From: Massilicoli timonensis
Lineage (GTDB): Bacteria; Bacillota_I; Bacilli_A; Erysipelotrichales; Erysipelotrichaceae
NCBI RefSeq assembly: GCF_900199515.1
Contig: NZ_LT963434.1
Span: 1,396,050-1,428,049, forward strand
Reading direction: 5' to 3'
DNA: 32,000 nt
The notes under the pieces were generated by a model, which was not told where the DNA came from, did not search any database, and saw only the letters and a list, made by a program, of their open reading frames with translations. Numbering within the stretch: position 1 is the stretch's first letter; each line of letters starts with the position of its first letter. Position numbers and translations under genes: made by a program. This document shows, one piece after another, positions 657 through 24,962 of the stretch.

Positions 657-683
657 TAAAAGATGAAGAAAGGGGTATCAGAC

Positions 684-1016
684 ATGAAAAAGCAGTTTCG
701 TATCAAAAAGAGTGAAGAATTTGCTGAAATCATGGGTGCAAAGAAATTTTATACATGTCCTTCCTTTGTCATTTATGTAAAACCACGAAAAGAAGATCAT
801 GCAAGAGTAGGTATTTCAGTCGGTAAAAAGATCGGAAATGCGGTTGTACGCAATAAAGTGAAGCGCCAAGTACGGATGATATTGCATGAAATATTTGATT
901 TTAACGGCAATTTTGACATGATTTTATTGGTTCGGATAAAATATTTAGATGAAAATTACAATACCAATAAAAACTGCTTGGAAAAATTGCTTAAAAAAGT
1001 TAAAATAGATAAGTAA
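684..1016 (+). CDS. rnpA: Ribonuclease P protein component
   Basis: ORF 663-1016. MKKQFRIKKSEEF...VGISVGKKIGNAVVRNKVKRQVR matches the RnpA family, with rpmH-rnpA-yidC synteny. The start is probably the internal ATG at 684. Confidence 0.9.
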   Translation: MKKQFRIKKSEEFAEIMGAKKFYTCPSFVIYVKPRKEDHARVGISVGKKIGNAVVRNKVKRQVRMILHEIFDFNGNFDMILLVRIKYLDENYNTNKNCLEKLLKKVKIDK

Positions 1017-1039
1017 GTGATAGCGAGGAGAATGTATCA

Positions 1040-1918
1040 ATGAAAAACATTATGAAGGATAAGCGAAAATTATTGCTGTTATGTGTTTTGGTTTTAGTGG
1101 TATTGACCGCTTGTTCCAGTCCGCGCGGTGAGGATGGAAAAATTTTAGCAGAAAAAATCATCAGTTTGGATACACCGTTTACTTTAGATGGAAGCTGGTT
1201 TGACGGATTGATCGTATGGCCGATTGCACAGTTGATCAATTTAGTGGCTTCTCATAGTGATGCCGGTATCGGTGTCATTGTCGCAACGCTGCTCATTCAG
1301 CTTTTGACTTCAGCATTTACGATCAAATCACAAGTATCTTCTCAGAAGATGCAGATGATGCAGCCGGAGCTCAGTAAGATTCAAGCAAAATATGCCGGCA
1401 AGACCGATGAACAGTCAAGAATGAGAATGGCACAGGAAATGCAGGCTCTATATTCCAAATATAAAGTCAATCCATTCAGTTCGATCTTGGTGATGTTTTT
1501 ACAGTTTCCGATTATTTTAGGAATGTATCAGGCAGTACAGCGTGCTGATACCGTCATCAACGGAAACTTTTTAGGTATCAATCTTTCTATCAATGCCATT
1601 GACGGTATTAAAGCATTTGATATTGCATTCATCGTAATTTTTGCACTGATGGTTGTTTCTCAGTTTGTTTCAATGAAAATTCCGATGTGGCTGCAAGCGC
1701 GCAGAAAGAAGAGAATGCACATCAAAGAAAAGAAATATGCACAGCCGGAAAACAATGGCGGCATGATGAAAAATATGAATACGATGATGTATGTCAGCAT
1801 GGGAATGGTTGCGGTGTTCGCACTGATGTGGCCATTGGGAATGTCATTCTACTGGATGGTTTCTTCCATTGCTCGTATCATTCAAAATTTCATTATTGAT
1901 AAATTCTTTATTAAGTAA
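1040..1918 (+). CDS. yidC: Membrane protein insertase YidC/SpoIIIJ (lipoprotein type)
   Basis: Lipobox LVVLTAC near the N-terminus, multi-pass hydrophobic core typical of Gram-positive YidC/Oxa1, conserved position after rnpA. Confidence 0.9.
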   Translation: MKNIMKDKRKLLLLCVLVLVVLTACSSPRGEDGKILAEKIISLDTPFTLDGSWFDGLIVWPIAQLINLVASHSDAGIGVIVATLLIQLLTSAFTIKSQVSSQKMQMMQPELSKIQAKYAGKTDEQSRMRMAQEMQALYSKYKVNPFSSILVMFLQFPIILGMYQAVQRADTVINGNFLGINLSINAIDGIKAFDIAFIVIFALMVVSQFVSMKIPMWLQARRKKRMHIKEKKYAQPENNGGMMKNMNTMMYVSMGMVAVFALMWPLGMSFYWMVSSIARIIQNFIIDKFFIK

Positions 1919-1931
1919 CGGAGGTGTTTTC

Positions 1932-2537
1932 ATGAAAGAATATACAGGTAAGACTTTAGAAGAAGTCCTGCATCAGATTGCTGATGAAAAAGGTGTCAGT
2001 GCCGATGCGATCACTTATGAATTAGTAGATGAGAAAAAAGGGTTTTTAGGAATCGGAAGTGAAGTGACAGTACGTGCATACTGTGAACCGGATATTCAAG
2101 AATTCATGAAAACATACTTAACTGCTTATTTTAATAACATCGAAATGGATGTGGCGATCACGATCGAAAATGATGAAGGTTTTTATCGCATCAATCTGGA
2201 TGCCGATAACAATGCGATCTTGATCGGCAGAAACGGACAGACTTTACAGGCAATCAATACAGTGTTGAAAACTGCCGTTTCCAGTGAATTTAAGAAACGT
2301 ATCGGAGTACTGATCGACATTAACGGCTATAAAGAAGATAAATATGAAAAAGTATGTTCTTTAGCAAAACGGGTTGCCAGAACAGTACAGCGTACTAAAA
2401 CTGATGCAGTATTAGATCCGATGCCTGCCGATGAAAGAAAAGCCATTCACAACGCTTTATCAGATATGGAACATATCATGACCCAAAGTGAAGGAGAAGG
2501 CAATCAGCGTCGATTAAAAATTATTTACGCAGAATAA
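1932..2537 (+). CDS. jag: Jag/KhpB RNA-binding protein (Jag_N, KH and R3H domains)
   Basis: ORF 1869-2537. GGAGG at 1920-1924 favours ATG 1932 (MKEYTGKTLEEV...). The KH-like GRNGQTLQAINTV and C-terminal R3H-like region are typical of SpoIIIJ-associated Jag. Confidence 0.88.
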   Translation: MKEYTGKTLEEVLHQIADEKGVSADAITYELVDEKKGFLGIGSEVTVRAYCEPDIQEFMKTYLTAYFNNIEMDVAITIENDEGFYRINLDADNNAILIGRNGQTLQAINTVLKTAVSSEFKKRIGVLIDINGYKEDKYEKVCSLAKRVARTVQRTKTDAVLDPMPADERKAIHNALSDMEHIMTQSEGEGNQRRLKIIYAE

Positions 2538-2873: not shown

Positions 2874-3278
2874 ATGAAAAAAATAATATTGATCTTGACT
2901 GTGTTTCTTCTGCTAATAGGCTGTCAAAAAAAGATGACTTCCAAACAAGTCGTAGAAAATTACTTCAACTATATCAATGAAAAAAATGAAGAAGGATTTA
3001 ACAATTTATTCGCGGTTCCATTAAAACCAGAAGATACAGAAACATTGTTCAAAGGAATAAAAGAAATAAAAATAAGAGAAATAAACGTAGTAGAAAAAGA
3101 CGAACATCTAATGGAAAAAGAGGAGAAAGAAGATGAAATCACATATTATGTAGACTTTGATCTGATTTATAATGAGAATAATGAAGGCATTACCTATAAT
3201 GACGGCGGTGATACAAGAAACTTTTATTTGAAGAAAGTAAAAGGCGAGTGGAAAATCATATCTATTGGATTATTATAA
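2874..3278 (+). CDS. Small hypothetical lipoprotein
   Basis: Signal peptide with lipobox MKKIILILTVFLLLIGC, an AG-rich RBS (AGAGAGGAAAA) ending 5 nt upstream. Very AT-rich, Lys/Glu/Asn-rich mature part. No family recognised with certainty. Confidence 0.7.
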   Translation: MKKIILILTVFLLLIGCQKKMTSKQVVENYFNYINEKNEEGFNNLFAVPLKPEDTETLFKGIKEIKIREINVVEKDEHLMEKEEKEDEITYYVDFDLIYNENNEGITYNDGGDTRNFYLKKVKGEWKIISIGLL

Positions 3279-3409: not shown

Positions 3410-3520
3410 CAAGATAATTGATAGAATTTATGTTTCCGCAACCTGAAATTGACAAAAAGAAACAGAAAATTGGTAGTGAGAAAAAGCGGCTTTTATTATA
3501 AATAAAGCGAGGTGATGAAA

Positions 3521-4489
3521 ATGAAATTTAGTGAGAAATTAAAACAATTAAGAAAAGACAAAGGAATGTCACAGGAAGATCTGGCATTTGAACTGAATGT
3601 ATCAAGACAGGCAGTGTCAAAATGGGAGAGCGATAATGCTTATCCGGAAACCGATAAACTGATTCAGATCGGTAAACTGTTTTCTGTTTCGATCGATTAT
3701 TTGTTGAATGAAGAAACAGATCATAATAAGAATGAAGAAATGTTCCCGCAACAATCATTTTATGAAGTCAGTATGGCAGAAATGAAAGATTATTTAACCT
3801 TCAAAAAGAAATTTGCGAAGATGATCGGTATTGGCGTCATGCTATGTATCCTATCTTTATTGCCGCCTTTGATCAGTACAGAAATGAAGCAAATGCAAAG
3901 GATCGCAAATGATGAAATACTGCTAAAAGATGCGCTTGGTGCAGCCGGTATGTTTTTAATTGTAGCGGTAGGCGTCATTATATTTATCATATATGGAATT
4001 AAAAATGCCCAGTTTAATAAAAAATATGAACAAGAATTAACGATCAAAAAAGAAGATTATCGTTATTTGGAAACAGAGCATCAACAGTTCCATGATCACT
4101 TTATCATTGCTATGGCAAGTGGTGTATTTCTTTGTATCTTTGCATTGATTTCGGCTATTTTAATTGATGCAATCATAGAAAAAGATGTTTATACAGGCGG
4201 TTCTTTATTTATATTTGTTGCCATTGCCGTATATATCTTCATTTATTTCGGATTACGAGAATCCTCTTACCAGTTCTTTTTAGAACATGAAAAATATCAA
4301 AAAGAGAAAGAAAAAGAAAAGAAAACAGAAGAAATGACCGATCGCTATTTTGAAATCGTTATGCCGATCGTTGGTGTTTTATACTGTGGCTTTGGTTTAT
4401 GGACCGGTATCTGGCATCCATCTTGGATCGTTTTCCCACTTACGGCTGTAATCATACTGGCTTATGCAGCTATAAAAAATAAGCAATAG
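3521..4489 (+). CDS. Membrane-anchored XRE-family (HTH_3) transcriptional regulator
   Basis: ORF 3512-4489 (GTG). GAGG at 3508-3511 favours ATG 3521. The N-terminus KLKQLRKDKGMSQEDLAFELNVSRQAVSKWESDNAYPETDKLIQIGKLFSVSIDYLL is a classic Cro/C1 HTH, followed by several predicted TM helices. Confidence 0.85.
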   Translation: MKFSEKLKQLRKDKGMSQEDLAFELNVSRQAVSKWESDNAYPETDKLIQIGKLFSVSIDYLLNEETDHNKNEEMFPQQSFYEVSMAEMKDYLTFKKKFAKMIGIGVMLCILSLLPPLISTEMKQMQRIANDEILLKDALGAAGMFLIVAVGVIIFIIYGIKNAQFNKKYEQELTIKKEDYRYLETEHQQFHDHFIIAMASGVFLCIFALISAILIDAIIEKDVYTGGSLFIFVAIAVYIFIYFGLRESSYQFFLEHEKYQKEKEKEKKTEEMTDRYFEIVMPIVGVLYCGFGLWTGIWHPSWIVFPLTAVIILAYAAIKNKQ

Positions 4490-5794: not shown

Positions 5795-6931
5795 ATGAAA
5801 AATACGTTTGGAAGCAATATTCAGTACACCCTGTTTGGAGAAAGCCATGGTGAAGCAATCGGTATCGTGATTGACGGATTGCCGGCGGGGATCGCATTAG
5901 ATCTTGATTTAATGGAAAGACAGATGGAAAAGCGCAAAGCGAAAGGGAAAATTTCGACACAGCGAAAAGAAGCAGATCAAGTAAAGATCATCAGCGGTTA
6001 TTTCAACGGTCATACAAGCGGAACACCTTTGACGATCCTGATTGAAAATACAAATGTCAAATCACAGGATTATGCGCGAACCCAGATGCTGCTGCGGCCA
6101 TCGCATGCAGATTACAGCGCACATGTAAAATATCGCGGTTTTGAAGATTATCGCGGCGGCGGACATTTCAGCGGACGATTGACCGCACCGATCGTTGCGG
6201 CCGGCAGCATTGCCATGCAAATCTTACAACAGTTGGGCGTACAGATCGCAACACATATTGAAAAGCTGCATGATTTAGAAGATGTGCGCTTTGGACAAAC
6301 GATCGAAGAAGTGGAAACGCAGATTGCTTATTTGCAAGATCGCTCATTTCCGACATTAGATGAAACATGTGGAAAAGCAATGATAGAAAAGATCGAAGCC
6401 TGTGCAAAACAAAAAGACAGCGTTGGCGGAATATTGGAAAGTGCAGCGATCCATGTGCCGGCGGGACTAGGCGAACCGTTTTTTGATTCGATCGAGAGCA
6501 TTCTTGCACATCTGCTGTTTTCGATACCGGCGGTAAAAGGCGTATCCTTCGGCAGTGGATTTGACTTTGCGAATTTGTATGGGAGTGAAGCGAATGATGC
6601 CTTTGCATTAAAAGAAGGAAAGATCGTGACCAAAAGCAATCATAATGGCGGAATCAACGGCGGGATCACCAATGGTATGCCAATTCATCTGCATACGGTG
6701 ATCAAAGCAACCCCATCTATTTACCAAGAGCAGGACAGCGTTGATCTGCAAAGCGGAAAAGAAGCAAAACTGACGATCAAAGGCAGACATGATCCGGCTA
6801 TTTTACACCGGGCGGCGGTCGTCGTAGACAGTATGATCGCCATTGGCCTATTAGAAGCACTTTGTCAGCAAGAAGCAGGTATGGCGTTGATCAAACAAAT
6901 GAGCAGTAACGAAAGAGGAATGATAGTATGA
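5795..6931 (+). CDS. aroC: Chorismate synthase
   Basis: FGESHG, RPSHADY, RGGGHFSGR and GRHDP motifs characteristic of AroC. Confidence 0.95.
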   Translation: MKNTFGSNIQYTLFGESHGEAIGIVIDGLPAGIALDLDLMERQMEKRKAKGKISTQRKEADQVKIISGYFNGHTSGTPLTILIENTNVKSQDYARTQMLLRPSHADYSAHVKYRGFEDYRGGGHFSGRLTAPIVAAGSIAMQILQQLGVQIATHIEKLHDLEDVRFGQTIEEVETQIAYLQDRSFPTLDETCGKAMIEKIEACAKQKDSVGGILESAAIHVPAGLGEPFFDSIESILAHLLFSIPAVKGVSFGSGFDFANLYGSEANDAFALKEGKIVTKSNHNGGINGGITNGMPIHLHTVIKATPSIYQEQDSVDLQSGKEAKLTIKGRHDPAILHRAAVVVDSMIAIGLLEALCQQEAGMALIKQMSSNERGMIV

Positions 6932-7944
6932 TTATTACAATGAAGAAAACGGCAACACAAAAAGATCTCGATTCCATCATTTCTATGATCGAATCAAAAG
7001 GATTACATGTCAATATGATTTCCGGTACAAGTTACAATGTATTCGGTGTAGTCGGTGATACGACGATTTTGGATATGAAGACCATTGAAGCAAATAACAA
7101 GGTTGAAAGCGTCATGCGTGTATCTGAGCCGTATAAGAAAGTAAACCGGTTATTTCATCCGGAAGATACGATCGTAGATGTAAATGGTATCAAGATCGGC
7201 GGAAAAGAGAAGATCGTCGTAATCGGCGGACCTTGTTCAGTCGAGGGACAGGAACAAATATCCCGCATTGCCAAAGAAGTAAAAGAAGCGGGAGCGGATA
7301 TGCTAAGAGGAGGCGCTTATAAGCCGCGTACTTCCCCATATGCGTTTCAGGGATTAGGTTTTGCAGGCATCATGAATTTGGAACAGGCAAAGAAAGAAAC
7401 CGGTATGCCGATCGTCAGTGAAATCATGAGCGTAGATAAAATTGATGAATTTGTGGAGCATGTGGATATTTTGCAGGTTGGCGCCCGCAATATGCAGAAT
7501 TTCGATCTGTTAAAAGCACTTGGTAAAACCAATAAGCCGATCTTGCTGAAGCGCGGACTTTCCAACACGATCGAAGAATGGCTGATGTCGGCAGAATATA
7601 TCATGGCAGGTGGTAATCCGAATGTGATCTTATGTGAACGCGGTATTCGCACCTTTGAAAAATATACGCGCAACACATTAGATCTCAGCGTCATTCCGAT
7701 CATTAAAAAGAAAACACATCTGCCGATCATCATCGATCCATCCCATGCGACAGGCGATTGGGAACTGGTGGAAGCAATGAGCTTAGCAGCGATCGCGGCG
7801 GGTGCAGATGGTTTGATCATTGAAGTGCATGACCATCCGGAGTGTGCGTGGAGCGATGGGGCACAGTCATTAAAACCAAAACGCTTCAAAGAACTGATCG
7901 AAAAAGGGCGTGTGATCGCCAATGTTGTAGGACGCAGCATGTAG
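6928..7944 (+). CDS. aroF: DAHP synthase, type I-beta, with N-terminal ferredoxin-like regulatory domain (paralogue 1)
   Basis: GAYKPRTSPYAFQGLG, VGARNMQN and IIDPSHATG are typical of the DAHPS/KDO8PS I-beta family. A ~75-aa N-terminal extension resembles that of Thermotoga-type regulated DAHPS. ATGA overlap with aroC. Confidence 0.9.
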   Translation: MIITMKKTATQKDLDSIISMIESKGLHVNMISGTSYNVFGVVGDTTILDMKTIEANNKVESVMRVSEPYKKVNRLFHPEDTIVDVNGIKIGGKEKIVVIGGPCSVEGQEQISRIAKEVKEAGADMLRGGAYKPRTSPYAFQGLGFAGIMNLEQAKKETGMPIVSEIMSVDKIDEFVEHVDILQVGARNMQNFDLLKALGKTNKPILLKRGLSNTIEEWLMSAEYIMAGGNPNVILCERGIRTFEKYTRNTLDLSVIPIIKKKTHLPIIIDPSHATGDWELVEAMSLAAIAAGADGLIIEVHDHPECAWSDGAQSLKPKRFKELIEKGRVIANVVGRSM

Positions 7945-7954
7945 GAGGAATTTT

Positions 7955-8974
7955 ATGATCATAACCGTAAAGGCGAATATTCCCGAAAAAGAACTGGAAC
8001 GAATCAAAAGACAGTTTGAAGAACAGGGCTTTCAAATCAATGACAGCTGTGGCGCCAATTATCATATATTGGGACTGATCGGAGATACGACCACATTAGA
8101 TGAAAAATCGATCTTAGCAGATCCTTATATTTCACAAGTTACGCGTATCGCCGTTCCTTATAAACAGGCCAGCAGGCAATTTCATCCGGAAGATACGATC
8201 GTAGATGTAAATGGTATCAAGATCGGCGGAAAAGAGAAGATCGTCATAATCGGCGGACCTTGTTCAGTCGAGGGACAGGAACAAATATCCCGCATTGCCA
8301 AGGAAGTAAAAGAAGCGGGAGCGGATATGTTAAGAGGAGGCGCTTATAAGCCGCGTACTTCCCCATATGCGTTTCAGGGATTAGGTTTTGCAGGCATCAT
8401 GAATTTAGAACAGGCAAAAAAAGAAACCGGTATGCCGATCGTATCAGAACTGATGGACAGCGAACAGTTGGAGGAATTTGTCGAACATGTGGATATCATT
8501 CAGATTGGCGCCCGCAATATGCAAAACTTTTCTTTATTGAAAGCGGTCGGAAAGACGAAAAAACCGGTACTGTTAAAAAGAGGGCTGGCAAATACGATCG
8601 AAGAGTGGATCATGTCGGCAGAATATATTTTGGCGCAGGGCAACCCCAATGTCATCTTGTGCGAACGCGGCATTCGCACCTTTGAAAAATATACGCGCAA
8701 CACATTAGATCTCAGCGTCATTCCGATCATCAAAGAAAAAACACATCTGCCGATCATCATTGATCCATCGCATGCGACCGGCGATTGGAAACTGGTAGAA
8801 GCGATGAGCTTGGCGGCAGTTGTGGCAGGCGCAGATGGTTTGATGATTGAAGTGCATGACCATCCGGAATGTGCATGGAGCGACGGTGCGCAAAGCGTAA
8901 AGCCAAAACGCTTCAAAGAGATCATTGAAAAATGTCGAAAAGCAGCAAAGATCGTCGAAAGGGAATTAGGATGA
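7955..8974 (+). CDS. aroF: DAHP synthase, type I-beta, paralogue 2 (tandem duplicate with divergent N-terminal domain)
   Basis: Same catalytic motifs as paralogue 1. Nucleotides 8181-8442 differ from 7154-7415 at only 5 of 262 positions, whereas the first ~75 codons are highly diverged. Confidence 0.9.
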   Translation: MIITVKANIPEKELERIKRQFEEQGFQINDSCGANYHILGLIGDTTTLDEKSILADPYISQVTRIAVPYKQASRQFHPEDTIVDVNGIKIGGKEKIVIIGGPCSVEGQEQISRIAKEVKEAGADMLRGGAYKPRTSPYAFQGLGFAGIMNLEQAKKETGMPIVSELMDSEQLEEFVEHVDIIQIGARNMQNFSLLKAVGKTKKPVLLKRGLANTIEEWIMSAEYILAQGNPNVILCERGIRTFEKYTRNTLDLSVIPIIKEKTHLPIIIDPSHATGDWKLVEAMSLAAVVAGADGLMIEVHDHPECAWSDGAQSVKPKRFKEIIEKCRKAAKIVERELG

Positions 8975-12573: not shown

Positions 12574-12606
12574 AAAAAAGGAACCTCATGCAAAGAAGTT
12601 CCTTTT
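12574..12606 (-). terminator. Rho-independent terminator after nrdG
   Basis: AAGGAAC/GTTCCTT stem (12578-12584/12598-12604). On the minus strand it is followed by TTTTTT. Confidence 0.7.
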
Positions 12607-12611
12607 ATGGT

Positions 12612-13139
12612 CTATTCATCAAGATGCTGATTGACCTCATCATAAGCGCTCAAGATCACCTGCTGCTTTGCCAGCGACTGCTGCACATCAATGATCCGCT
12701 GATTTTTGGATCCTTTGAAGCGCAGTCGATAATCTTTTTGTGCTTCAATGAAACGTCCGTCTACCAATACGTCTATATGTTCCAGCAGTGCTTTTTTCTC
12801 TTTGTCACACAGCAGTTCCTCAAATGTATAACCACTGTATGCCCAGACGTTGAGCTTCATTTCCTCTTTCGCAAAGACAGCGATCGGAATCAGCGCCGCG
12901 CTTTGATCAAAGGGTTCACCGCCGGATAAGGTCAGCCCGCTTTGTAAACGGATCTGTTTCATCTCCTCGATGATACGTGTTACATCCACTGATACACCGC
13001 CGTTTGGATCGTGTGTCTGAGGATTATGACAGTTTGGGCAGTGATGGGGACAGCCTTGTGTCCAAAGCACCATGCGTAAGCCCGGTCCATCAACGATACT
13101 GTCTCTTTGCAGATCAGAAGCAAGCCTTACACTAAGCAT
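12612..13139 (-). CDS. nrdG: Anaerobic ribonucleoside-triphosphate reductase activating protein (radical SAM)
   Basis: VDGPGLRMVLWTQGCPHHCPNCHNP (CX3CX2C), GLTLSGGEP. 8-nt overlap with nrdD. Confidence 0.93.
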   Translation of the reverse strand: MLSVRLASDLQRDSIVDGPGLRMVLWTQGCPHHCPNCHNPQTHDPNGGVSVDVTRIIEEMKQIRLQSGLTLSGGEPFDQSAALIPIAVFAKEEMKLNVWAYSGYTFEELLCDKEKKALLEHIDVLVDGRFIEAQKDYRLRFKGSKNQRIIDVQQSLAKQQVILSAYDEVNQHLDE

Positions 13140-15480
13140 GCTTTACGCGATCTCTTTCTTCAGCCGCCTTGGAATCATTGAAACGGTCAAGTGTACCTAC
13201 TAAATAGCCGGTAATACGTCTGATCTTTTCAAATTTCATTTCGCTCTTGTATTCATCACGGCCGCATTTCGGGCATACATGTCCTTCGATCACTCCGCTG
13301 TATCCGCAGACCGGATCACGATCCACCGGATGATTGATGCTGCCATAGCCGACGCCGGCTTCTTTCATACATCTTACGATTGCTTCAAATGCTTCCAAGT
13401 TGTTGCATGGATCGCCGTCCACCTCTACATAGGAAATATGACCGGCATTGGTAAAGGCATGATATGGTGCTTCTCGTTCGATCTTTTCAAAGGCGCCGAT
13501 GTGATAGTAAACCGGTACATGGAAGCTGTTGGTATAATATTCACGATCGGTAACGCCCGGAACCACACCGTAAAGTTTTTTATCAATGCGCGTAAAGCGT
13601 CCGGATAATCCTTCTGCCGGAGTGGCGATCAAAGAGAAATTGAGATGATACTGATTCATCGCCTCATCCATGCGATCACGCATATGACCGATGATCTTTA
13701 AGCCTAAAGCCTGCGCTTCATCACTTTCTCCGTGATGTTTTCCAATCAGCGCTTTCAAGCATTCCGCTAAGCCGATAAAGCCAACGGTAAGAGTACCTTG
13801 CTTGATCACTTCTTCTAACGTATCATTCCAGTTTAACTTATCAGCGCCGAGCCATACACCCTGTCCCATTAAGAACGGGAAGTTTTTCACTTTCTTTTGT
13901 CCCTGGATCGCCATACGCTCTAATAACTGCTGAATGACAGAATCGATTTTCTCATCTAATTCCTGGAAGAAACCGGCTTCATCGAATTTACCGTTTAATG
14001 CCACACCGTGCTTTAAGCCTAAACGCGGAAGGTTAATGGAAGTAAAGGACAAATTGCCTCGTCCGGTTACGATTTCCGGTCCGCAGCAGTTGCTGATCAC
14101 ACGCGTACGGCATCCCATATAAGTCGCTTCCGTATCCGGATCTCCTTCCTTATAATATTGCAAATTGAACGGTGCATCCAAGAAAGAAAAGTTCGGGAAC
14201 AAACGCTTTGCGGAAACGCGGCAGCTTAACTTGAACAAGTCATAGTTTGGATCGCCTTCATTGTAATTGACGCCTTCTTTTACTTTGAAGATCAAGATCG
14301 GGAAGATCGGTGTTTCCCCATTGCCCAGACCTGCTTCCTGTGCTAATAACAGATTTTTCGATACCATACGACCTTCACTGCTGGTATCGGTGCCGAAGTT
14401 GATGCTGCTGAAAGGAACCTGTGCGCCGGCACGAGAGTGCATCGTATTCAAATTATGGATAAAGCCTTCCATTGACTGGAATGTCTTTTTATCAGTGTCT
14501 TTCAAAGCATTGCGATAAGCAAATTCCTCGATCAGATCCATTTGTTTATTGCCGATATGATAGGTATCGTGCAAGAAAGTACGCTGCTTTTCTAAATATT
14601 CCTGTTTCATATCGATTTCCGGCTGCATGCCCCATGCTTTGATTTGGTTTTCTAAGCTATCCTTCAGATCGATTTCATCATCGACCAGCACTTCCAAAGC
14701 ACGGCTTAAATTGCGGATATATTCGCGTTTGAAGGTTTTGCGTACGCCCGGTGCCAAATAGTAGTCAAAGGATGGAATGCTCTGTCCGCCATGCTGATCA
14801 TTTTGATCGCTTTGGATCGCAATCGCCGCTAATGCCCCATAGCTTAAAATATCCTGCGGTTCACGCAGATGACCGTGTCCTGTTGAGAAACCGCCGTTAA
14901 ATAATTTATTCAGATCGATCTGACAGCAGGTCAAAGTACCCATATTCATAAAGTCCATATCATGAATATGAATGTCGCCGTTTTCGTGCATTTTCGCATG
15001 CAGCGGATTCATGACTTCATTCATACAGAATTCTTTAGAAATGGCGCTGCCGTATTGCAGCATCGTACCCATTGCGGTATTACCGTCAATATTGGCGTTT
15101 TCACGCTTGACATCGCCGTCCTCACCATCGGCATCCGCATATGTGATCTGTCCGATCGCTTTCATGATGCGGGATTTGGAGTTACGGATTCGAGAACGCT
15201 GATCACGATACAAAATGTATGCCTCTGCGGTTTTCGCATGTCCTTCTTCGATCAGCACTTTAATGACCGCATCCTGAATATCCTCTACATTAGGGGTCGC
15301 GTCAAAGTGTGATTCAAGATAATGAATGACCTTAGTCGTCAAAAGTTCGGCAGTTGTGTAGTCCGCTTCCTTTCCTTCCTGCGATGCTACGCTGTTGGCT
15401 GCTAAATAAATGGCCCGTGTAATTTTTTCCGGGGTGAAATGGATTTCGCGTCCATCTCTTTTTTGGATCATCGTAATCAT
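13132..15480 (-). CDS. nrdD: Anaerobic ribonucleoside-triphosphate reductase (class III), full length
   Basis: N-terminal ATP-cone (IQKRDGREIHFTPEKITRAI), finger-loop MGCRT, SINLPRLG, C-terminal Cys pairs (CGYSG...CPKCG) and glycyl-radical motif RRITGYLVG. Confidence 0.96.
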   Translation of the reverse strand: MITMIQKRDGREIHFTPEKITRAIYLAANSVASQEGKEADYTTAELLTTKVIHYLESHFDATPNVEDIQDAVIKVLIEEGHAKTAEAYILYRDQRSRIRNSKSRIMKAIGQITYADADGEDGDVKRENANIDGNTAMGTMLQYGSAISKEFCMNEVMNPLHAKMHENGDIHIHDMDFMNMGTLTCCQIDLNKLFNGGFSTGHGHLREPQDILSYGALAAIAIQSDQNDQHGGQSIPSFDYYLAPGVRKTFKREYIRNLSRALEVLVDDEIDLKDSLENQIKAWGMQPEIDMKQEYLEKQRTFLHDTYHIGNKQMDLIEEFAYRNALKDTDKKTFQSMEGFIHNLNTMHSRAGAQVPFSSINFGTDTSSEGRMVSKNLLLAQEAGLGNGETPIFPILIFKVKEGVNYNEGDPNYDLFKLSCRVSAKRLFPNFSFLDAPFNLQYYKEGDPDTEATYMGCRTRVISNCCGPEIVTGRGNLSFTSINLPRLGLKHGVALNGKFDEAGFFQELDEKIDSVIQQLLERMAIQGQKKVKNFPFLMGQGVWLGADKLNWNDTLEEVIKQGTLTVGFIGLAECLKALIGKHHGESDEAQALGLKIIGHMRDRMDEAMNQYHLNFSLIATPAEGLSGRFTRIDKKLYGVVPGVTDREYYTNSFHVPVYYHIGAFEKIEREAPYHAFTNAGHISYVEVDGDPCNNLEAFEAIVRCMKEAGVGYGSINHPVDRDPVCGYSGVIEGHVCPKCGRDEYKSEMKFEKIRRITGYLVGTLDRFNDSKAAEERDRVKHA

Positions 15481-15718
15481 AATTCTCTTCCTTTCTTAGT
15501 TGATCATTTTGCCTGTTTTCAGAATCGGTTTTCTTCTTGCACAAACAGGTATATTTTAACGAAATTCATATTTGATTTCCAGTAGGAAACTTCATTTTCA
15601 AAAATTTTACAATTTTCTCCTACAATGTGTTGGATGAAATGAAGGCAGAAACCTTCGCTTTGTGAAAAGATCGCTTCTTTGATTGTTCAGATATGTTTTC
15701 AGTAAAGAAACTATCATT

Positions 15719-17605
15719 TCATTGTGTGGATAAAGATAATTGAAAATACGGAAGCCGATAGTGTTTCAATACCTTTTTTACCAATAGCTCCAGTATTTCG
15801 GTATCCGTCTGCGGATCCTCTAAATGGATCGTGAATAAAGGGCCGGCAGTAAAGAGCGGCTGTAATGTGTTTGCCAGATCCATCTGCTCAAAGAGGTCGG
15901 AAGGCGGATGAGGAGGCAGAAAGACGCCGGCGCTGTAGACATCGCTTGCATGCATGTCCTTTTCCATTTGCGGATAACGGCTGCGATCGCTTTTCGCAAA
16001 GCGCTGAAGACAGGTCGATTGCATTGTTTCCGCCAGATTAAAAGCGCATCCATACTGCTTTTGATAACCGATCAGCTTTACGCGCATATGGGTCAATACA
16101 GCTTTCGCAAACGCCTGTGTTTTCTCGTGCAATAAATCTTGCTTCAGCCAGTTCGCATAAATACCGGCTTCATTCATCCCGACGATGCCGATCGTGGCAA
16201 AATGGTTCGCAAAGCTGTGCAGGTAGCGTTTGGTATAAGGATATAAGCCTGCTTCCATGAGTTTGTCTAATACACTGCGCTTCATTTGCAAAGCGCGTGC
16301 CGCCAGATCCATCTGCTTATCTAACTTCACATAGAAATCCGTTTCATCTTCCGCCAAATAAGCGATGCGCGGCAGATTGATCGTAACCGTTCCGATCGAG
16401 CCGCTGTGCACAGCGCTGAGTTGTTCGCCGGCTGCGTGAGAAAGCTGATTTGCACTAGCTTGATGAACGTTCATGCCTTGCCAAAGCGCCTTTATATCTG
16501 CATTTTGTTCATTGATCAAACGCGGTGTGCCGCATTCTTTGATCAGCTGAAACAGCAGCTGTTTGTTTGGGTGATCGCTTGTTAGGATGGCTTCTGCCGG
16601 ATAAAAAGGAATCGGATAGCGGAACGGGTTTTGCTTGCCGTCTTTTTTTAACAATACACTGAAAAATGCCTGATTGATCAGATCCATTTCCTTTTGACAT
16701 TCTCCATAAGTAAACGCGGCACAAACCCCACCGACAATCGCTCTTCGATCGGCAAGATGTTTTGGCACATGCCAGTCAAACGCAATATGGATATCGGGAA
16801 GTCGTGCGCCCCATCGGCTTGGTGCATTGATGCCGTAGATCAATGCTTCCATCGCATTTTTCACTTCTTCAAAGGAAAGCTGTTCCCATTTTACAAAGGG
16901 CGCTAAATAGGTGTCAAAGGAAAGCATGGACTGTGTGCCTGCCCATTCGTTCTGCATGATGCCTAAAAAGGTATGCAGCTGATTGCAAAGAGTAAACAAA
17001 TGACGAGCCGGTTTGGCACTCGCTTCACTGTAAAGCCCATCTAAACCTTCCTCGATCAACTGCTTCGGCGACCAGCCTGCGCTTACTGCACTCAGCATGG
17101 ATAAATCGTGAATATGCAGATCTGCGTTTCGATGCGCCTCGGCGATTTCTTCATCATACACCTCATAAAGCCAGTAATTTCTGCTGATCGCAGCGCTGTT
17201 GCTGAAAATCAGACCTCCCATTGAAAAAGGAGCGGTGGCGTCGTTGTGTGTCAGCGCGCTTTTATCCTTTACATAGCTGTCGATCATCTCTTTGTGGTCG
17301 AGCAGCGTCGATTTCATATCGCGTACTTTTTCTCTTTGCTTACGGTAAAGAATATAAGCCTTGGCAACTTCGTGATAGCCGGACTGGATCAATATGGACT
17401 CTACACTGTCCTGGATATCCTCGACCTGAACGGCGTTGCTTTTGATCTTGCTGTCGAAATCAGCAGTTACCCGCAGCGCCAAAAGATCAATGACCGAAGG
17501 ATGGATGCTGGTGCCGGTTGCCTGAAAAGCCTTTTGGATGGCAGCGGTAATTTTGGCAATATCAAACGCCGCTTTCTTGCCGTCACGCTTCATTACTTCA
17601 TACAC
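15719..17605 (-). CDS. NrdD-like class III RNR paralogue with ATP-cone but without recognisable catalytic Cys or Zn-ribbon/glycyl-radical domain
   Basis: GTG 17605 (or ATG 17593, a TAATG overlap with the upstream gene). ATP-cone VMKRDGKKAAFDIAKITAAI. NrdD core blocks LHIHDL, SFDTYLAP and TINLPRIA. Ends at ...LPYFQLSLSTQ, which aligns just before the Zn-ribbon of the neighbouring NrdD. Confidence 0.85.
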   Translation of the reverse strand: MYEVMKRDGKKAAFDIAKITAAIQKAFQATGTSIHPSVIDLLALRVTADFDSKIKSNAVQVEDIQDSVESILIQSGYHEVAKAYILYRKQREKVRDMKSTLLDHKEMIDSYVKDKSALTHNDATAPFSMGGLIFSNSAAISRNYWLYEVYDEEIAEAHRNADLHIHDLSMLSAVSAGWSPKQLIEEGLDGLYSEASAKPARHLFTLCNQLHTFLGIMQNEWAGTQSMLSFDTYLAPFVKWEQLSFEEVKNAMEALIYGINAPSRWGARLPDIHIAFDWHVPKHLADRRAIVGGVCAAFTYGECQKEMDLINQAFFSVLLKKDGKQNPFRYPIPFYPAEAILTSDHPNKQLLFQLIKECGTPRLINEQNADIKALWQGMNVHQASANQLSHAAGEQLSAVHSGSIGTVTINLPRIAYLAEDETDFYVKLDKQMDLAARALQMKRSVLDKLMEAGLYPYTKRYLHSFANHFATIGIVGMNEAGIYANWLKQDLLHEKTQAFAKAVLTHMRVKLIGYQKQYGCAFNLAETMQSTCLQRFAKSDRSRYPQMEKDMHASDVYSAGVFLPPHPPSDLFEQMDLANTLQPLFTAGPLFTIHLEDPQTDTEILELLVKKVLKHYRLPYFQLSLSTQ

Positions 17606-18750
17606 ATGCCGTCACGCTCCTTTCCTTCTTTGATCTGCACACAAGCGACACTTTCCGCAAGAATTGCCTGAAAGGTGCGCATCGTATCCATATTGACCGG
17701 ATGCAGACCGGATTGGATGATCTGCCCATTGTCCTCAAATACCTGCAATACACATTTCTTGGCACCGCGCAGTAGTTCTTTCATTTCCAGCAGATCGCTT
17801 TTTTCATGCAGTTCTTTGACGATCGTCGTACGAAACTCATAGGGGACGAGTCCCTGCTTCAAAAAATCAATGCTTTCTTGGATCAAATGAAAATCAAGAT
17901 CATCAATGCCGGCGCTTTCCCCATAGCGTGTCCACCCGTTCTTAACATCCATCGCCACATAATCGACATAACCGTTTCTAACCAGCTCTTTCAAATAAGC
18001 GGGATATGCGCCGTTTGTATCTAATTTGATCCGGTAGCCGAGATCATGCAGCTTGCTTAAAAACGGCCGCAGCTCGTGCATCAGCGGTTCCCCGCCGCTT
18101 AAAGTGACGCAGTCGATCAGACCTGCTCGTTTGCTTAAATAAGAGAAGATCGTATCGCCGCTGATTTCATTTTGACCTTCGCTTACATAGACGAGGTTGC
18201 TGTTTTTACAGAACGGACAGCGAAAATTACAGCCGCCGGTATAAAGAACACAGGCAAGATTGCCGGGATAGTCGCGAAATGACACCTTCTGCATCTCAAA
18301 GAGCTTAAGCGATCCTCTCTTTACATCATCAAAGCTGCGTGCATTTTCACAAAGCTTCGATTGAATGCGGGAAAAAGCAGTGATATCCGCCTCCTCCATG
18401 TCTTGCGTCAAATGCTCCCACCAGTCTTTTCTTACCATATAAAGCTGGGCGATCATTCCTTTGGTTTGATCGGTCGTATATAAACGCTTTACACGCTTAT
18501 CCGCTTCGTCACTTGCCATTGCGACATAATTGCTCTGCATGAGCTTCTGTATGCTTTTGGTGATCGTTCCCTTGTCATAGCCGCACATATCTGCTAAGCG
18601 ATTCATCGCGATGCCTTCATGTTCATAAATCTGAATCAGGATCGGCAAATGAGAGAAATTGATGTCATAGGCTTCCAGACATTTGTCATAATACTTTTGG
18701 GTGCAGCGATATAAGATCGAGGTATCCATTAAAATATCACTGTCTTTCAT
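17593..18750 (-). CDS. Fusion protein: N-terminal MarR-type winged-helix domain plus C-terminal NrdG/PflA-like radical-SAM activase domain
   Basis: ORF 17593-18804. AGGAGG with 9-nt spacing favours ATG 18750. MarR-like region INFSHLPILIQIYEHEGIAMNRLADMCGYDKGTITKSIQKLMQSNYVAMASDEADKRVKRLYTT. Radical-SAM CVLYTGGCNFRCPFCKNS, TLSGGEPLMH, KLDTNG. Confidence 0.85.
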   Translation of the reverse strand: MKDSDILMDTSILYRCTQKYYDKCLEAYDINFSHLPILIQIYEHEGIAMNRLADMCGYDKGTITKSIQKLMQSNYVAMASDEADKRVKRLYTTDQTKGMIAQLYMVRKDWWEHLTQDMEEADITAFSRIQSKLCENARSFDDVKRGSLKLFEMQKVSFRDYPGNLACVLYTGGCNFRCPFCKNSNLVYVSEGQNEISGDTIFSYLSKRAGLIDCVTLSGGEPLMHELRPFLSKLHDLGYRIKLDTNGAYPAYLKELVRNGYVDYVAMDVKNGWTRYGESAGIDDLDFHLIQESIDFLKQGLVPYEFRTTIVKELHEKSDLLEMKELLRGAKKCVLQVFEDNGQIIQSGLHPVNMDTMRTFQAILAESVACVQIKEGKERDGMCMK

Positions 18751-18775: not shown

Positions 18776-18804
18776 ATGATAGCACTAGATAGTTGAACAT
18801 TCAA
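18776..18804 (-). promoter_or_regulatory. Promoter of the marR-activase / nrdD-like operon
   Basis: On the minus strand: TTGAAT (18804-18799), 17-nt spacer, TATCAT (18781-18776), ~26 nt upstream of the ATG at 18750. Confidence 0.55.
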
Positions 18805-18808
18805 CTAT
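18789..18808. promoter_or_regulatory. 20-bp palindromic candidate operator (ATAGTTGAA-CA-TTCAACTAT)
   Basis: Perfect 9-bp inverted arms around a 2-bp centre. Covers the -35 hexamer and part of the spacer of the promoter above, the typical geometry of an autoregulated MarR operator. Confidence 0.6.
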
Positions 18809-18899
18809 TTATCTGCATGTAAATGATTTTCATTTGTTTGTCATCACTTTTCTGCTCGTGAAGGCATCGTTTTTTAATGGTTTTGAAACGATTTTGCAT

Positions 18900-18926
18900 A
18901 GAAAAAGCCGTTTTGTGTACGGCTTT
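18900..18926 (-). terminator. Rho-independent terminator after rsmI
   Basis: AAGCCGT/ACGGCTT stem. On the minus strand it is followed by TTTTTC. Confidence 0.7.
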
Positions 18927-23726: not shown

Positions 23727-24962
23727 TTACCAAGAGGTTTTTTGTTCTTCCTTTTTCAGTTTGGAAAAATCCACATGGCAATAGCCGTTTGGATTTTTTA
23801 ACAGATACTGCTGATGATACGCCTCTGCATCATAAAAGCAGGTAAGCGGCTGCACCTCGGTCAAGATCGGCGACGGATAGTCTGCCTGCTTCTTTTGGAT
23901 CCAGGTGCGGATCGTTTCTTCGTCCGCTTGATCCAGATAGTAAACACCGGTGCGGTATTGACTGCCCCGATCTTCTCCTTGTTCATGGTAGGCGGTAGGA
24001 TCAATGATACGAAACAGCAGCTCTAGGATCAAAGGAAGATCGATCAGACGATCATCGTATTGGAGACGGCACGCTTCCACATGATTGGTTTGATCACTGC
24101 ATACTTCTTCATAGGTAGGGTTTGCGGTAAATCCTTGCGCATAGCCAACACTTGTCTGTAAGATGCCTTTGACGCGGCGATAATATTCCTGTACGCCCCA
24201 AAAACAGCCGCCTGCTACGACGATTTCATGCAGATGCTTGGCATTTTCACATAAATCCCGAACGACCTTGGATGCGGCAGCCAGTCCTGCGGCAGGAGGA
24301 ACAAACGATGAACTGGCAGGCGGTATTTTCGCTTTGCGGGTCTTTCCATCCGCATTGATGATACGGTTTTGTACGATCGGCTGCTCTGTTGAAAAAATGA
24401 CCGGTATTCTGCCATAGATCCGCTGTTTTTTTACAAGACTGCGCAGTATTTTTGCCAATGGATCATAGCTTGTCTGATCCAGTGTCGTGATCGTGATCTT
24501 GGTGGGATCGAGGCGATTTGCCATGCCCAAAGAACTGATAAAAGGAATCTTTTTTTCCAGACAAGTCTGTATCAGTTCCAGTTTAGCGCTGATCGTATCG
24601 ATCGCGTCTACGACATAGTCGATTTTTTGTGAAAACAGCTGTTCATTTATCGCTTTACTGTAAAAGCAGTCATAACAAATGATCGTGCAGTCTTTGCGGT
24701 ACGACTTGATCCGTTCTTTCATGACCGCAGTCTTTGCTTTGCCGATGGTTCCATAATCAGCATGGATCTGTCGGTTCAAATTGCTTTCGGCAACGATGTC
24801 ATGATCGACTAAGATCAAAGTGCCGATCCCGCTGCGTGCCAATGCTTCGGCAGCAAAAGAACCGACCCCGCCGATGCCGACGATCATAACGGTTGCATGA
24901 CTTACAGCCTGCATGCCTTTTTCTTTTAAGAGCAGGCGGGTCCTTGTTTTAGCATCTTCCAT
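23727..24962 (-). CDS. Fusion protein: ThiF/TcdA-like tRNA t6A dehydratase domain plus peptide-methionine (S)-S-oxide reductase MsrA domain
   Basis: N-terminal VMIVGIGGVGSFAAEALARSGIGTLILVDHDIVAESNLNRQ (E1-like/TcdA). C-terminal VVAGGCFWGVQEYY...GYAQG...NPTYEEVC (MsrA with catalytic GCFWG). One uninterrupted 411-codon ORF. Confidence 0.85.
   Translation of the reverse strand: MEDAKTRTRLLLKEKGMQAVSHATVMIVGIGGVGSFAAEALARSGIGTLILVDHDIVAESNLNRQIHADYGTIGKAKTAVMKERIKSYRKDCTIICYDCFYSKAINEQLFSQKIDYVVDAIDTISAKLELIQTCLEKKIPFISSLGMANRLDPTKITITTLDQTSYDPLAKILRSLVKKQRIYGRIPVIFSTEQPIVQNRIINADGKTRKAKIPPASSSFVPPAAGLAAASKVVRDLCENAKHLHEIVVAGGCFWGVQEYYRRVKGILQTSVGYAQGFTANPTYEEVCSDQTNHVEACRLQYDDRLIDLPLILELLFRIIDPTAYHEQGEDRGSQYRTGVYYLDQADEETIRTWIQKKQADYPSPILTEVQPLTCFYDAEAYHQQYLLKNPNGYCHVDFSKLKKEEQKTSW

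Follow-up and report, generated by a model that had tools for sequence, protein, structure and literature searches.

A MarR winged helix fused to an NrdG2-type radical-SAM activase in Massilicoli timonensis: a putative autoregulated activase-repressor beside a truncated NrdD paralogue

Introduction

Why should the activase of an anaerobic ribonucleotide reductase (RNR) carry the DNA-binding domain of a transcription factor? The question is raised by a gene of Massilicoli timonensis that lies within a 32,000-nucleotide (nt) stretch of contig NZ_LT963434.1 (positions 1,396,050 to 1,428,049; this whole stretch is hereafter the window, and positions are given within it), and whose product joins an N-terminal MarR winged helix to an NrdG2-type radical S-adenosylmethionine (SAM) activase. 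It is followed on the same strand by a truncated paralogue of the class III reductase NrdD, and then by a canonical nrdD-nrdG pair (Table 1). Class III RNRs and their activases are textbook radical enzymes, and we found no report of an activase that bears a transcription-factor domain. Our literature search likewise returned no paper on MarR-NrdG fusions, on fusions of activases or other radical-SAM enzymes with transcription factors, on Cys-less NrdD paralogues or on the RNRs of Holdemanella. A preliminary description of the locus, made from the sequence alone, had left both the substrate of the radical-SAM domain and the reason for its tether unexplained. Our best reading, which we hold with moderate confidence, is that the fusion is an autoregulated activase-repressor, and that in the clade of the window the fusion and the truncated paralogue act mainly as a regulatory module.

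The fusion gene and its product

The preliminary description had recognized a MarR winged helix at the N-terminus with an intact activase behind it, and had raised the concern that the N-terminal region might match no MarR or winged-helix profile, or that two separate genes had been joined by a sequencing or assembly error. Both MarR_2 (residues 28-86, E 1.6e-9, 38.2 bits against a cut-off of 27) and MarR (residues 34-87, E 7e-7, 29.5 bits against 24.6) matched above their Pfam gathering scores. An assembly or frameshift artefact was rejected, as the genes recur, identical or nearly so, in separate ENA, Logan and NCBI assemblies and among the RefSeq proteins of Massilicoli timonensis. The MarR-NrdG2 fusion of this species is thus confirmed as real. 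Its start was placed at the ATG at 18750, which is preceded by AGGAGG 9 nt upstream and is the point at which the N-termini of homologues align; the TTG at 18804, given as the start in the open reading frame (ORF) list, was rejected since it falls inside the promoter.

The C-terminal half matches Radical_SAM (residues 170-276, E 4.3e-12) and Fer4_12 in Pfam, the two together spanning 166-276, and passes the NCBIfam NrdG2 model TIGR02495 with 175.8 bits (cut-off 131.15) over residues 152-337 of the fusion; the identity of this half to unfused NrdG2 proteins of Clostridia is 40-50%. The CX3CX2C, GGEP (219-222) and KLDTNG motifs are all there, each at positions that do not vary in a family alignment of 68 sequences. 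The AlphaFold2 model, for which 68 homologues were used (predicted local distance difference test, pLDDT, 90.8; predicted template-modelling score, pTM, 0.81), shows a full six-helix MarR fold with its wing, followed by a partial TIM barrel. DSSP assigns helices in the MarR half to residues 6-28, 35-43, 49-56, 60-72, 94-114 and 120-138, and strands to 76-80 and 88-92, with DKGTITKSIQKL as the recognition helix and DKRVKRLYTT as the wing. Foldseek aligned this half with MarR/SlyA structures (target TM 0.90-0.94) and the C-terminal half with the pyruvate formate-lyase (PFL) activase structures 3C8F and 3CB8 (E 6e-13, target TM 0.74-0.75), while the closest sequence match of the MarR half in the PDB is 3S2W from Methanosarcina mazei (E 9.7e-16). 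Both domain assignments of the preliminary description are therefore borne out by profile, motif and fold.

No conserved ligand or redox-cysteine signature was seen in the MarR domain across the family alignment, in which Cys16 varies. An OhrR/SarZ-type redox cysteine was rejected because relatives carry Ser, Tyr, Asn or Val in place of Cys16, and because this residue is out of register with Cys15 of OhrR in an alignment made by eye.

Distribution of the fusion family

The fusion architecture is shared by over 100 protein clusters, none of them from outside Erysipelotrichaceae. The best 120 database matches are all 371-395 aa long and share the same two-domain architecture; the named ones belong to C. 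innocuum, Amedibacterium and Longicatena, and they are labelled only as ‘anaerobic ribonucleoside-triphosphate reductase activating protein’. Scanning one genome for each GTDB species gave 16 fused loci, again confined to Erysipelotrichaceae, and 64 loci with an unfused NrdG2 in Clostridia and other groups, whose proteins are 41-49% identical to the fusion over residues 144-374. A MarR gene neighbouring the unfused nrdG2 was considered as the source of the fused domain and rejected, as none was found at the 64 loci save for a weak divergent match at one of them (L066). From fetched contexts and metagenome scans, 111 fused loci were collected, a large part of them redundant at the species level.

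A complete reductase beside the fusion in most relatives

In most relatives, here termed class A, an NrdD of 788-806 aa begins 1-32 nt 3' of the fusion gene. It carries an ATP-cone, the GYCAGW and SMCCRL motifs with the active-site cysteines, a zinc ribbon, the RITGYY glycyl-radical motif and a C-terminal CPxC glutaredoxin. The same nrdG2-nrdD gene order is found in unfused operons of Clostridia. Because a complete NrdD stands directly downstream in most relatives, the ancestral substrate of the family is explained: by gene order and motif content, the fusion is ancestrally the activase of the thiol-dependent class III reductase encoded beside it. The statement that the radical-SAM domain has no explained substrate consequently does not hold for the family but does hold for Massilicoli, where the partner has lost its zinc-ribbon/glycyl-radical domain and the fusion is left with no cognate substrate. 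As a side observation, nrdG2 and nrdD stand about 100-240 nt apart in the unfused Clostridia (loci L024-L088) versus 1-32 nt in the fused Erysipelotrichaceae, and the longer gap may hold a regulatory element.

Two class III systems normally coexist in this family, since the canonical formate-type NrdD and NrdG are also present; the canonical NrdD orthologues of Amedibacterium, Absiella and Longicatena are 73-78% identical to that of the window. That the canonical NrdD of the window has its own NrdG, as first noted from the sequence, agrees with the NCBIfam and Pfam matches of both proteins.

A truncated NrdD paralogue that is predicted to be inactive

The 628-aa partner in Massilicoli matches NRDD in Pfam and aligns with NF006126 at model positions 2-625 of 684, but falls below the cut-off of TIGR02487 (269 versus 326 bits). 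Its active site has been lost at two places. GYCAGW has become AVSAGW (YC to VS), which removes the equivalent of Cys125 of tmNrdD, the one cysteine conserved in all RNRs (PMC4493059), and SMCCRL has become ALWQGM, whereby the thiyl-radical (finger) loop is gone; all three active-site cysteines are thus lost. Further changes convert EATPAES to AETMQST and YYTNSSH to VYSAGVF. The protein ends after the last barrel strand, exactly before the zinc ribbon, and so has neither RITGYY nor a glutaredoxin, in line with the earlier remark that the partner has no glycine-radical loop. A remnant of the missing ~160 C-terminal residues was sought in the 238-nt spacer and the rest of the window, and none was found, which indicates a clean deletion. 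The 942-aa protein P0122 was considered as a closer full-length relative and rejected as an assembly with an internal duplication.

The changes are unevenly spread. The paralogue departs from 27 full-length homologues at 151 of the 393 residues that these all share, and yet within residues 1-100, the ATP-cone, 45 of the 47 family-invariant residues are kept and only 2 are changed. Mean identity among the class A partners is 79.7% and that of the paralogue to class A is 49.7%, while the fusion protein departs only a little from the norm, being 44.3% identical to class A as against 51.2% within class A. An AlphaFold2 model of the paralogue (mean pLDDT 60.9) is confident only in the ATP-cone and parts of the barrel. 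Taken at the level of its residues, the 628-aa protein is predicted to be a catalytically dead enzyme.

A conserved palindrome over the fusion promoter

The core of the palindrome upstream of the fusion gene (18789-18808) has perfect arms of 9 nt and is its only match in the window, where 0.03 would be expected by chance; the predicted -35 hexamer falls inside the palindrome. The family form is TAGTTGAA-N2-TTCAACTA, and loci were compared with the pattern AGTTG-N6-CAACT, allowing at most one mismatch. In C. innocuum (L003) the palindrome-to-TGCTATCAT layout matches that of the window. Besides the window, 15 of 17 species-level fused loci have the palindrome 30-81 nt 5' of the fusion gene, sometimes twice, and always across the -35/spacer region or between the -10 box and the ribosome-binding site; in the larger metagenome set it lies upstream of the fusion in 42 of 43 class A loci. 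Upstream of the unfused nrdG2 it was found at none of the 64 loci (background, 9 occurrences over the 642 kb that these loci cover). In all fusion clades DKGT[IV][TS]K as the recognition helix and DKRx[KR]xL[YF]TT as the wing are invariant. Because the palindrome overlaps the fusion promoter in nearly all fused loci and is absent from the 64 unfused ones, the fusion protein is very probably an autorepressor that would bind the palindrome at its own promoter. The second puzzle of the preliminary description, the tether to a transcription-factor domain, is in this way partly answered, as the conserved palindrome indicates autoregulation.

An entirely different role for the winged helix would be that of a protein- or peptide-recognition module that docks the activase on NrdD with no DNA binding, much as the recognition element (RRE) of maturases for ribosomally synthesized and post-translationally modified peptides (RiPPs) does. 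RiPP maturases offer many cases of a radical-SAM enzyme fused to a winged-helix recognition domain, and the upstream palindrome is missing in some members of the window's clade. Against such a role stand the full MarR fold with dimerization helices a1, a5 and a6, unlike a PqqD-like RRE, the invariance of the DNA-reading helix and of the wing motif DKRxK/R, and the matching promoter palindrome in nearly all class A loci; we give this explanation very little chance.

The derived clade of the window

Two further classes of partner were distinguished. In class B, represented by Holdemanella biformis and Faecalitalea cylindroides, the partner is 652-682 aa long and has neither the active-site cysteines nor the glutaredoxin, with the zinc ribbon and R[VI][SA]GYY retained; the fused activase is intact in Holdemanella, has no GGEP in Faecalitalea and has no cysteine triad at loci L099 and L102. 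In class C the partner additionally has no glycyl-radical domain, as in Massilicoli (628 aa), L093 (592 aa, beside a triad-less fusion) and L146 (368 aa). A HMMER search with the MarR domain over 1.8 billion cluster representatives gave about 27 divergent representatives of fused length, in 7 of which the CX3CX2C triad is gone.

Several individual loci of this kind may be recorded here. Class B-type NrdD-like genes (L113-L143, of the Holdemanella biformis type; L104-L110, Faecalitalea cylindroides; L098-L103; L142) encode a large clade of proteins, are invariably preceded by a MarR-NrdG fusion, and bear the annotation ribonucleoside triphosphate reductase. The triad-less MarR-fused proteins (P0396, P0404, P0409, P0410, P0422, P0433 and P0452; loci L093 and L097-L103) in some cases retain GGEP and the overall fold, and one of them is publicly annotated as an OhrR-type regulator. 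At L095 the MarR part is a separate 150-aa protein, and this split version (L095:46-2598, and L096) comprises a MarR protein 51% identical to that of the window, a 189-aa ORF with no Pfam match and a Cys-less NrdD-like gene. In a high-GC lineage (L146:5165-6271 and L148) the 368-aa partner has no KRDG start of the ATP-cone and keeps the AYILYRKQRE segment. Four loci with conserved synteny (L121, L099, L102 and L146, about 3990-4001; pullulanase, guaB, fusion, NrdD-like) have the fusion gene straight after the guaB terminator, with a -10-like box 6-8 nt before the ATG and neither a ribosome-binding site nor a palindrome, so that the fusion mRNA is probably leaderless there.

In neighbour-joining trees of both NrdD and the radical-SAM domain, the window joins classes B and C in a single long-branched clade, of which it is the basal member. 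The derived characters common to this clade, namely xxSAGW and the losses of the finger-loop cysteines and of the glutaredoxin, agree with the grouping. The order of conservation among domains is inverted here. The ATP-cone of NrdD shows 66% identity in class A and 61% in classes B and C, as against 79-93% and 37-49% for the catalytic core; for the fusion, the MarR domain shows 46% and 48%, and the radical-SAM domain 53% and 35%, respectively. In the derived clade the MarR domain and the ATP-cone thus keep their ancestral conservation whereas the catalytic parts are relaxed. Since the MarR domain holds its conservation in either group while the radical-SAM domain is relaxed and, in some members, has no cluster cysteines, these figures support regulation rather than catalysis as the conserved function in the clade of the window. 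A transcription factor that senses Fe-S state, SAM or oxygen, the possibility offered in the preliminary description, may be the form that this regulation takes, the evidence favouring no one signal.

Selection on the fusion and its partner

Could the pair simply be decaying? On this account nrdG2-marR and nrdD2 would have become functionless once the thiol-dependent reductase was redundant with the formate-type system, and the coexistence of two class III systems in the family, which makes one of them dispensable, speaks for it, as do the loss of catalytic residues and of 160 C-terminal residues from the partner and the progressive losses across the clade. Polymorphism was examined in three Massilicoli alleles from seven assemblies. 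The 628-aa gene has 32 synonymous and 18 nonsynonymous changes and no stops (ratio of nonsynonymous to synonymous polymorphism, pN/pS, 0.15; P = 1e-10 against neutrality), with 15 synonymous changes and 1 nonsynonymous in residues 1-289 (0.02) and 17 of each in the remainder (0.27). The fusion gene has a pN/pS of 0.12 and the canonical NrdD one of 0.01. Both the fusion and the 628-aa gene are under purifying selection and are not pseudogenes.

In Holdemanella, for which 10 alleles were available, pN/pS is 0.094 for the fusion, 0.080 for the Cys-less NrdD and 0.088 for the glycyl-radical part of the latter, and the control genes gave 0.027 (guaB, computed without one frameshifted allele), 0.052 (pullulanase) and 0.092 (proC), so that both genes are under ordinary purifying selection. 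The Cys-less NrdD-like proteins of Holdemanella cannot be ribonucleotide reductases, yet they are functional. Decay is largely refuted by these values and by the stop-free alleles; it is further contradicted by the fixation of the 628-aa form in hundreds of assemblies, by the constraint on the Holdemanella homologues, which resembles that on housekeeping genes, and by the domain-specific pattern of the losses, which spare the MarR domain and the ATP-cone. We regard it as very improbable.

Regulatory module or enzyme

How might such a pair work? In class A, the fusion would be the first gene of a two-gene operon and its product would install the glycyl radical on the adjacent NrdD, while its MarR domain would bind the family palindrome over the core promoter and so repress its own operon. 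In Massilicoli, the MarR-NrdG protein would repress the promoter region at 18776-18811, which would drive the fusion gene and the dead nrdD and, by read-through across the terminator-less 238-nt spacer, would also bring the canonical nrdD-nrdG under its control. The iron-sulfur (Fe-S)/SAM domain and the nucleotide-binding dead NrdD would here supply an input signal rather than act as enzyme and substrate. The pair is most likely regulatory in Massilicoli because the MarR domain and the ATP-cone and N-terminal half of the partner keep ancestral constraint.

A bolder version of this idea, to which we lend only tentative credence, is that MarR-NrdG and the Cys-less ATP-cone paralogue form an RNR-derived transcription switch, a functional analogue of NrdR. 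The dead NrdD would sense ATP or dATP through its conserved ATP-cone, and the nucleotide state would govern its docking to the (pseudo)activase domain and hence the occupancy of the MarR operator; an O2-labile Fe-S cluster, and the glycyl radical where it is kept, would add a redox input. In the NrdD of Prevotella copri the glycyl-radical domain is either ordered or released, depending on the ATP or dATP state of the ATP-cone (PMC11226230). An activase needs the released domain, and in class B the nucleotide state could therefore couple to the MarR-activase. This coupling is not transferable unchanged to Massilicoli, because the 628-aa partner has no glycyl-radical domain.

It could also be argued that the fusion is an autoregulated activase that is still enzymatic and acts on the canonical NrdD 240 nt downstream, either alongside the small NrdG, redundantly, or in its place, the dead paralogue being irrelevant to the fusion. 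No radical-SAM motif is damaged, each falls in alignment columns that are invariant across the family, and the domain is under purifying selection and the least diverged from class A within its clade; moreover, only in Massilicoli do the canonical nrdD and nrdG stand directly downstream in the same orientation with no terminator between. Nonetheless, the canonical NrdD is already served by its own intact and perfectly conserved NrdG, and it belongs to another subclass, being about 25% identical to the ancestral substrate of the fusion. Continued enzymatic activity would also leave unexplained both the selection on the dead NrdD and the loss of Fe-S cysteines in sister lineages that keep the MarR domain, and we think this alternative unlikely.

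Several points weigh against a regulatory module of the kind that we favour. The radical-SAM domain of the window keeps every catalytic motif and is 45% identical to class A as against 35% to its own clade, so that it may still be an active enzyme, for instance on the adjacent canonical NrdD. The evidence for DNA binding is phylogenetic footprinting, and the link between palindrome and MarR domain is confounded with taxonomy, since the fused loci are from Erysipelotrichaceae and the unfused controls from other orders; another family-specific regulator could own the palindrome. The palindrome is missing 5' of the fusion gene in several derived-clade members (Holdemanella, L099, L102, L146). It is equally absent before the canonical nrdD, both in the window and in two further species (L177 and L178-180), and no convincing second target was found in 927 kb of flanking sequence, which leaves a regulon beyond autoregulation unsupported. 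The fusion promoter and the read-through are predictions at the level of consensus matches, and the 238-nt spacer contains a weak promoter-like TGGAAA-17-TAAAAT (15581-15553). Lastly, the selection tests in Massilicoli depend on three alleles only, and long-branch attraction could exaggerate the way in which the neighbour-joining trees group the long branches.

Other features of the window

The coordinates of the cluster are collected in Table 1. In the 238-nt spacer we found no terminator-like site and no MarR palindrome; it has imperfect inverted repeats (15663-15721). A riboswitch or other known RNA was rejected for the window, the spacer included, as no Rfam match reached the gathering score.

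Table 1. Features of the fusion and nrd cluster in the window
Feature	Position	Strand	Remarks
Hairpin and T-run after rsmI, parting the fusion from the upstream gene	18904..18926	minus	inverted repeat I2
Palindromic putative operator, ATAGTTGAA-CA-TTCAACTAT	18786..18811	none	12-nt arms, 92% complementary; inverted repeat I1
Predicted sigma-70-like promoter, TTGAAT-17 nt-TG-n-TATCAT	18776..18804	minus	consensus match 9/12, extended -10 TG
Fusion coding sequence (CDS), 385 aa	18750..17593	minus	ATG start, TAA stop
MarR domain, residues 1-140	18331..18750	minus	helices a1-a6 and wing
NrdG2-type radical-SAM activase domain, residues 153-385	17596..18294	minus	TIGR02495, Foldseek
CNFRCPFC, the CX3CX2C [4Fe-4S] cluster motif	18208..18231	minus	C174, C178, C181
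NrdD paralogue CDS, 628 aa	17605..15719	minus	GTG start; 13-nt overlap with the fusion CDS
ATP-cone of the NrdD paralogue, residues 3-92	17330..17599	minus	Pfam E 5.3e-23
238-nt spacer	15481..15718	minus	precedes canonical nrdD
Canonical NrdD, 782 aa, with glycyl-radical domain	15480..13132	minus	NF005497, 1126.5 bits; Gly_radical (Pfam)
Canonical NrdG activase, 175 aa	13139..12612	minus	TIGR02491, 158.6 bits against a cut-off of 126.1
Terminator-like hairpin closing the four-gene nrd cluster	12576..12606	minus	12-bp stem followed by a T-run

The left end of the window (663-2537) holds the origin-proximal genes rnpA, yidC and jag/khpB. The GC skew changes from positive (1-12 kb) to negative (12-22 kb), and genes flip from the plus to the minus strand at about 12.1-12.6 kb; because of this joint switch, the segment with the nrd cluster may be inverted. 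The first 5000 nt have a G+C content of 0.30-0.39 versus about 0.45 elsewhere and include a 325-aa HTH_3 protein (3512-4489) and a DUF4829 protein (2874-3278). An aro cluster contains tandem paralogous DAHP (3-deoxy-D-arabino-heptulosonate 7-phosphate) synthase genes (6928-7944 and 7955-8974), each with a ferredoxin-like N-terminal domain, and a 411-aa ORF on the minus strand (23727-24962), judged by its sequence, looks like a ThiF/TcdA-type N-terminus joined to methionine sulfoxide reductase A (GCFWG).

Significance and comparison with known systems

If the fusion is an autorepressor-activase, it would represent a new mode of controlling RNR expression and a new example of an enzyme-repressor, built on a radical-SAM enzyme. 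A regulatory derived clade would, for its part, record how an enzyme/activase pair was turned stepwise into a sensor, by the proposed route of an intact pair, a Cys-less partner, the loss of the Fe-S cysteines and finally the loss of the glycyl-radical domain, and would offer a system in which to study the recruitment of an ATP-cone into gene control. Should the switch be real, a clade of non-catalytic RNR-derived regulators would exist in Erysipelotrichaceae that are abundant in the human gut (Holdemanella, Faecalitalea, Massilicoli). On the practical side, thousands of gut-bacterial database entries are labelled as ‘ribonucleoside triphosphate reductase’ or its activating protein though incapable of being reductases, and such entries affect metabolic reconstructions of deoxynucleoside triphosphate (dNTP) synthesis in these organisms.

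Among known systems, the fusion is closest in its enzymatic half to the NrdG2 activases of Clostridia, Thermotoga and archaea (TIGR02495), with which its C-terminal 230 residues share an above-cut-off score, the CX3CX2C and GGEP motifs and the PFL-activase fold, and, in the relatives, the position of the gene directly upstream of an NrdD of the same subclass (PRK08270 type). It differs from them by the added 150-residue N-terminal MarR domain, by the want of a cognate glycyl-radical substrate in Massilicoli and by the loss of the Fe-S cysteines in some relatives. With the MarR autorepressors (MarR, SlyA, OhrR/SarZ) it has in common every element of the fold, from helices a1-a6 to the wing, and a palindrome of 18-20 bp over its own promoter. 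Classical members are stand-alone proteins of ~150 aa with an effector pocket between the dimerization and DNA-binding lobes, whereas the fusion carries a whole radical-SAM enzyme on helix a6.

The nearest parallels in logic are the trigger enzymes BirA, PutA and NadR, in which a pathway enzyme and a DNA-binding domain that controls the genes of the pathway are united in one polypeptide. The fusion likewise has enzyme and DNA-binding domains in one chain, with a putative operator at an nrd promoter, and the logic would be the same if engagement of the substrate protein competed with operator binding. The DNA-binding fold and the enzyme class differ, and our literature search found no radical-SAM or glycyl-radical activase among trigger enzymes.

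NrdR, the zinc-ribbon plus ATP-cone repressor of nrd genes, might be comparable in that an nrd locus here encodes an ATP-cone protein, the dead NrdD, next to a DNA binder. The present proteins do not belong to the NrdR family, and the case differs in that the DNA binder here is a MarR domain on a separate polypeptide, the coupling of the two proteins being hypothetical; no domain or profile match to the NrdR architecture was found in the fusion or the 628-aa paralogue (Pfam, NCBIfam), and tandem NrdR boxes are absent, the fusion palindrome being different from their consensus.

Finally, accessory fusions that are specific to a lineage are known among RNRs, such as the NrdB of Facklamia ignava with its N-terminal glutaredoxin and ATP-cone (PMC6187632), and the class A NrdD itself has a fused glutaredoxin. 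In fusions of the Facklamia type, redox or allosteric domains are placed on reductase subunits, whereas here a transcription-factor domain is placed on the activase.

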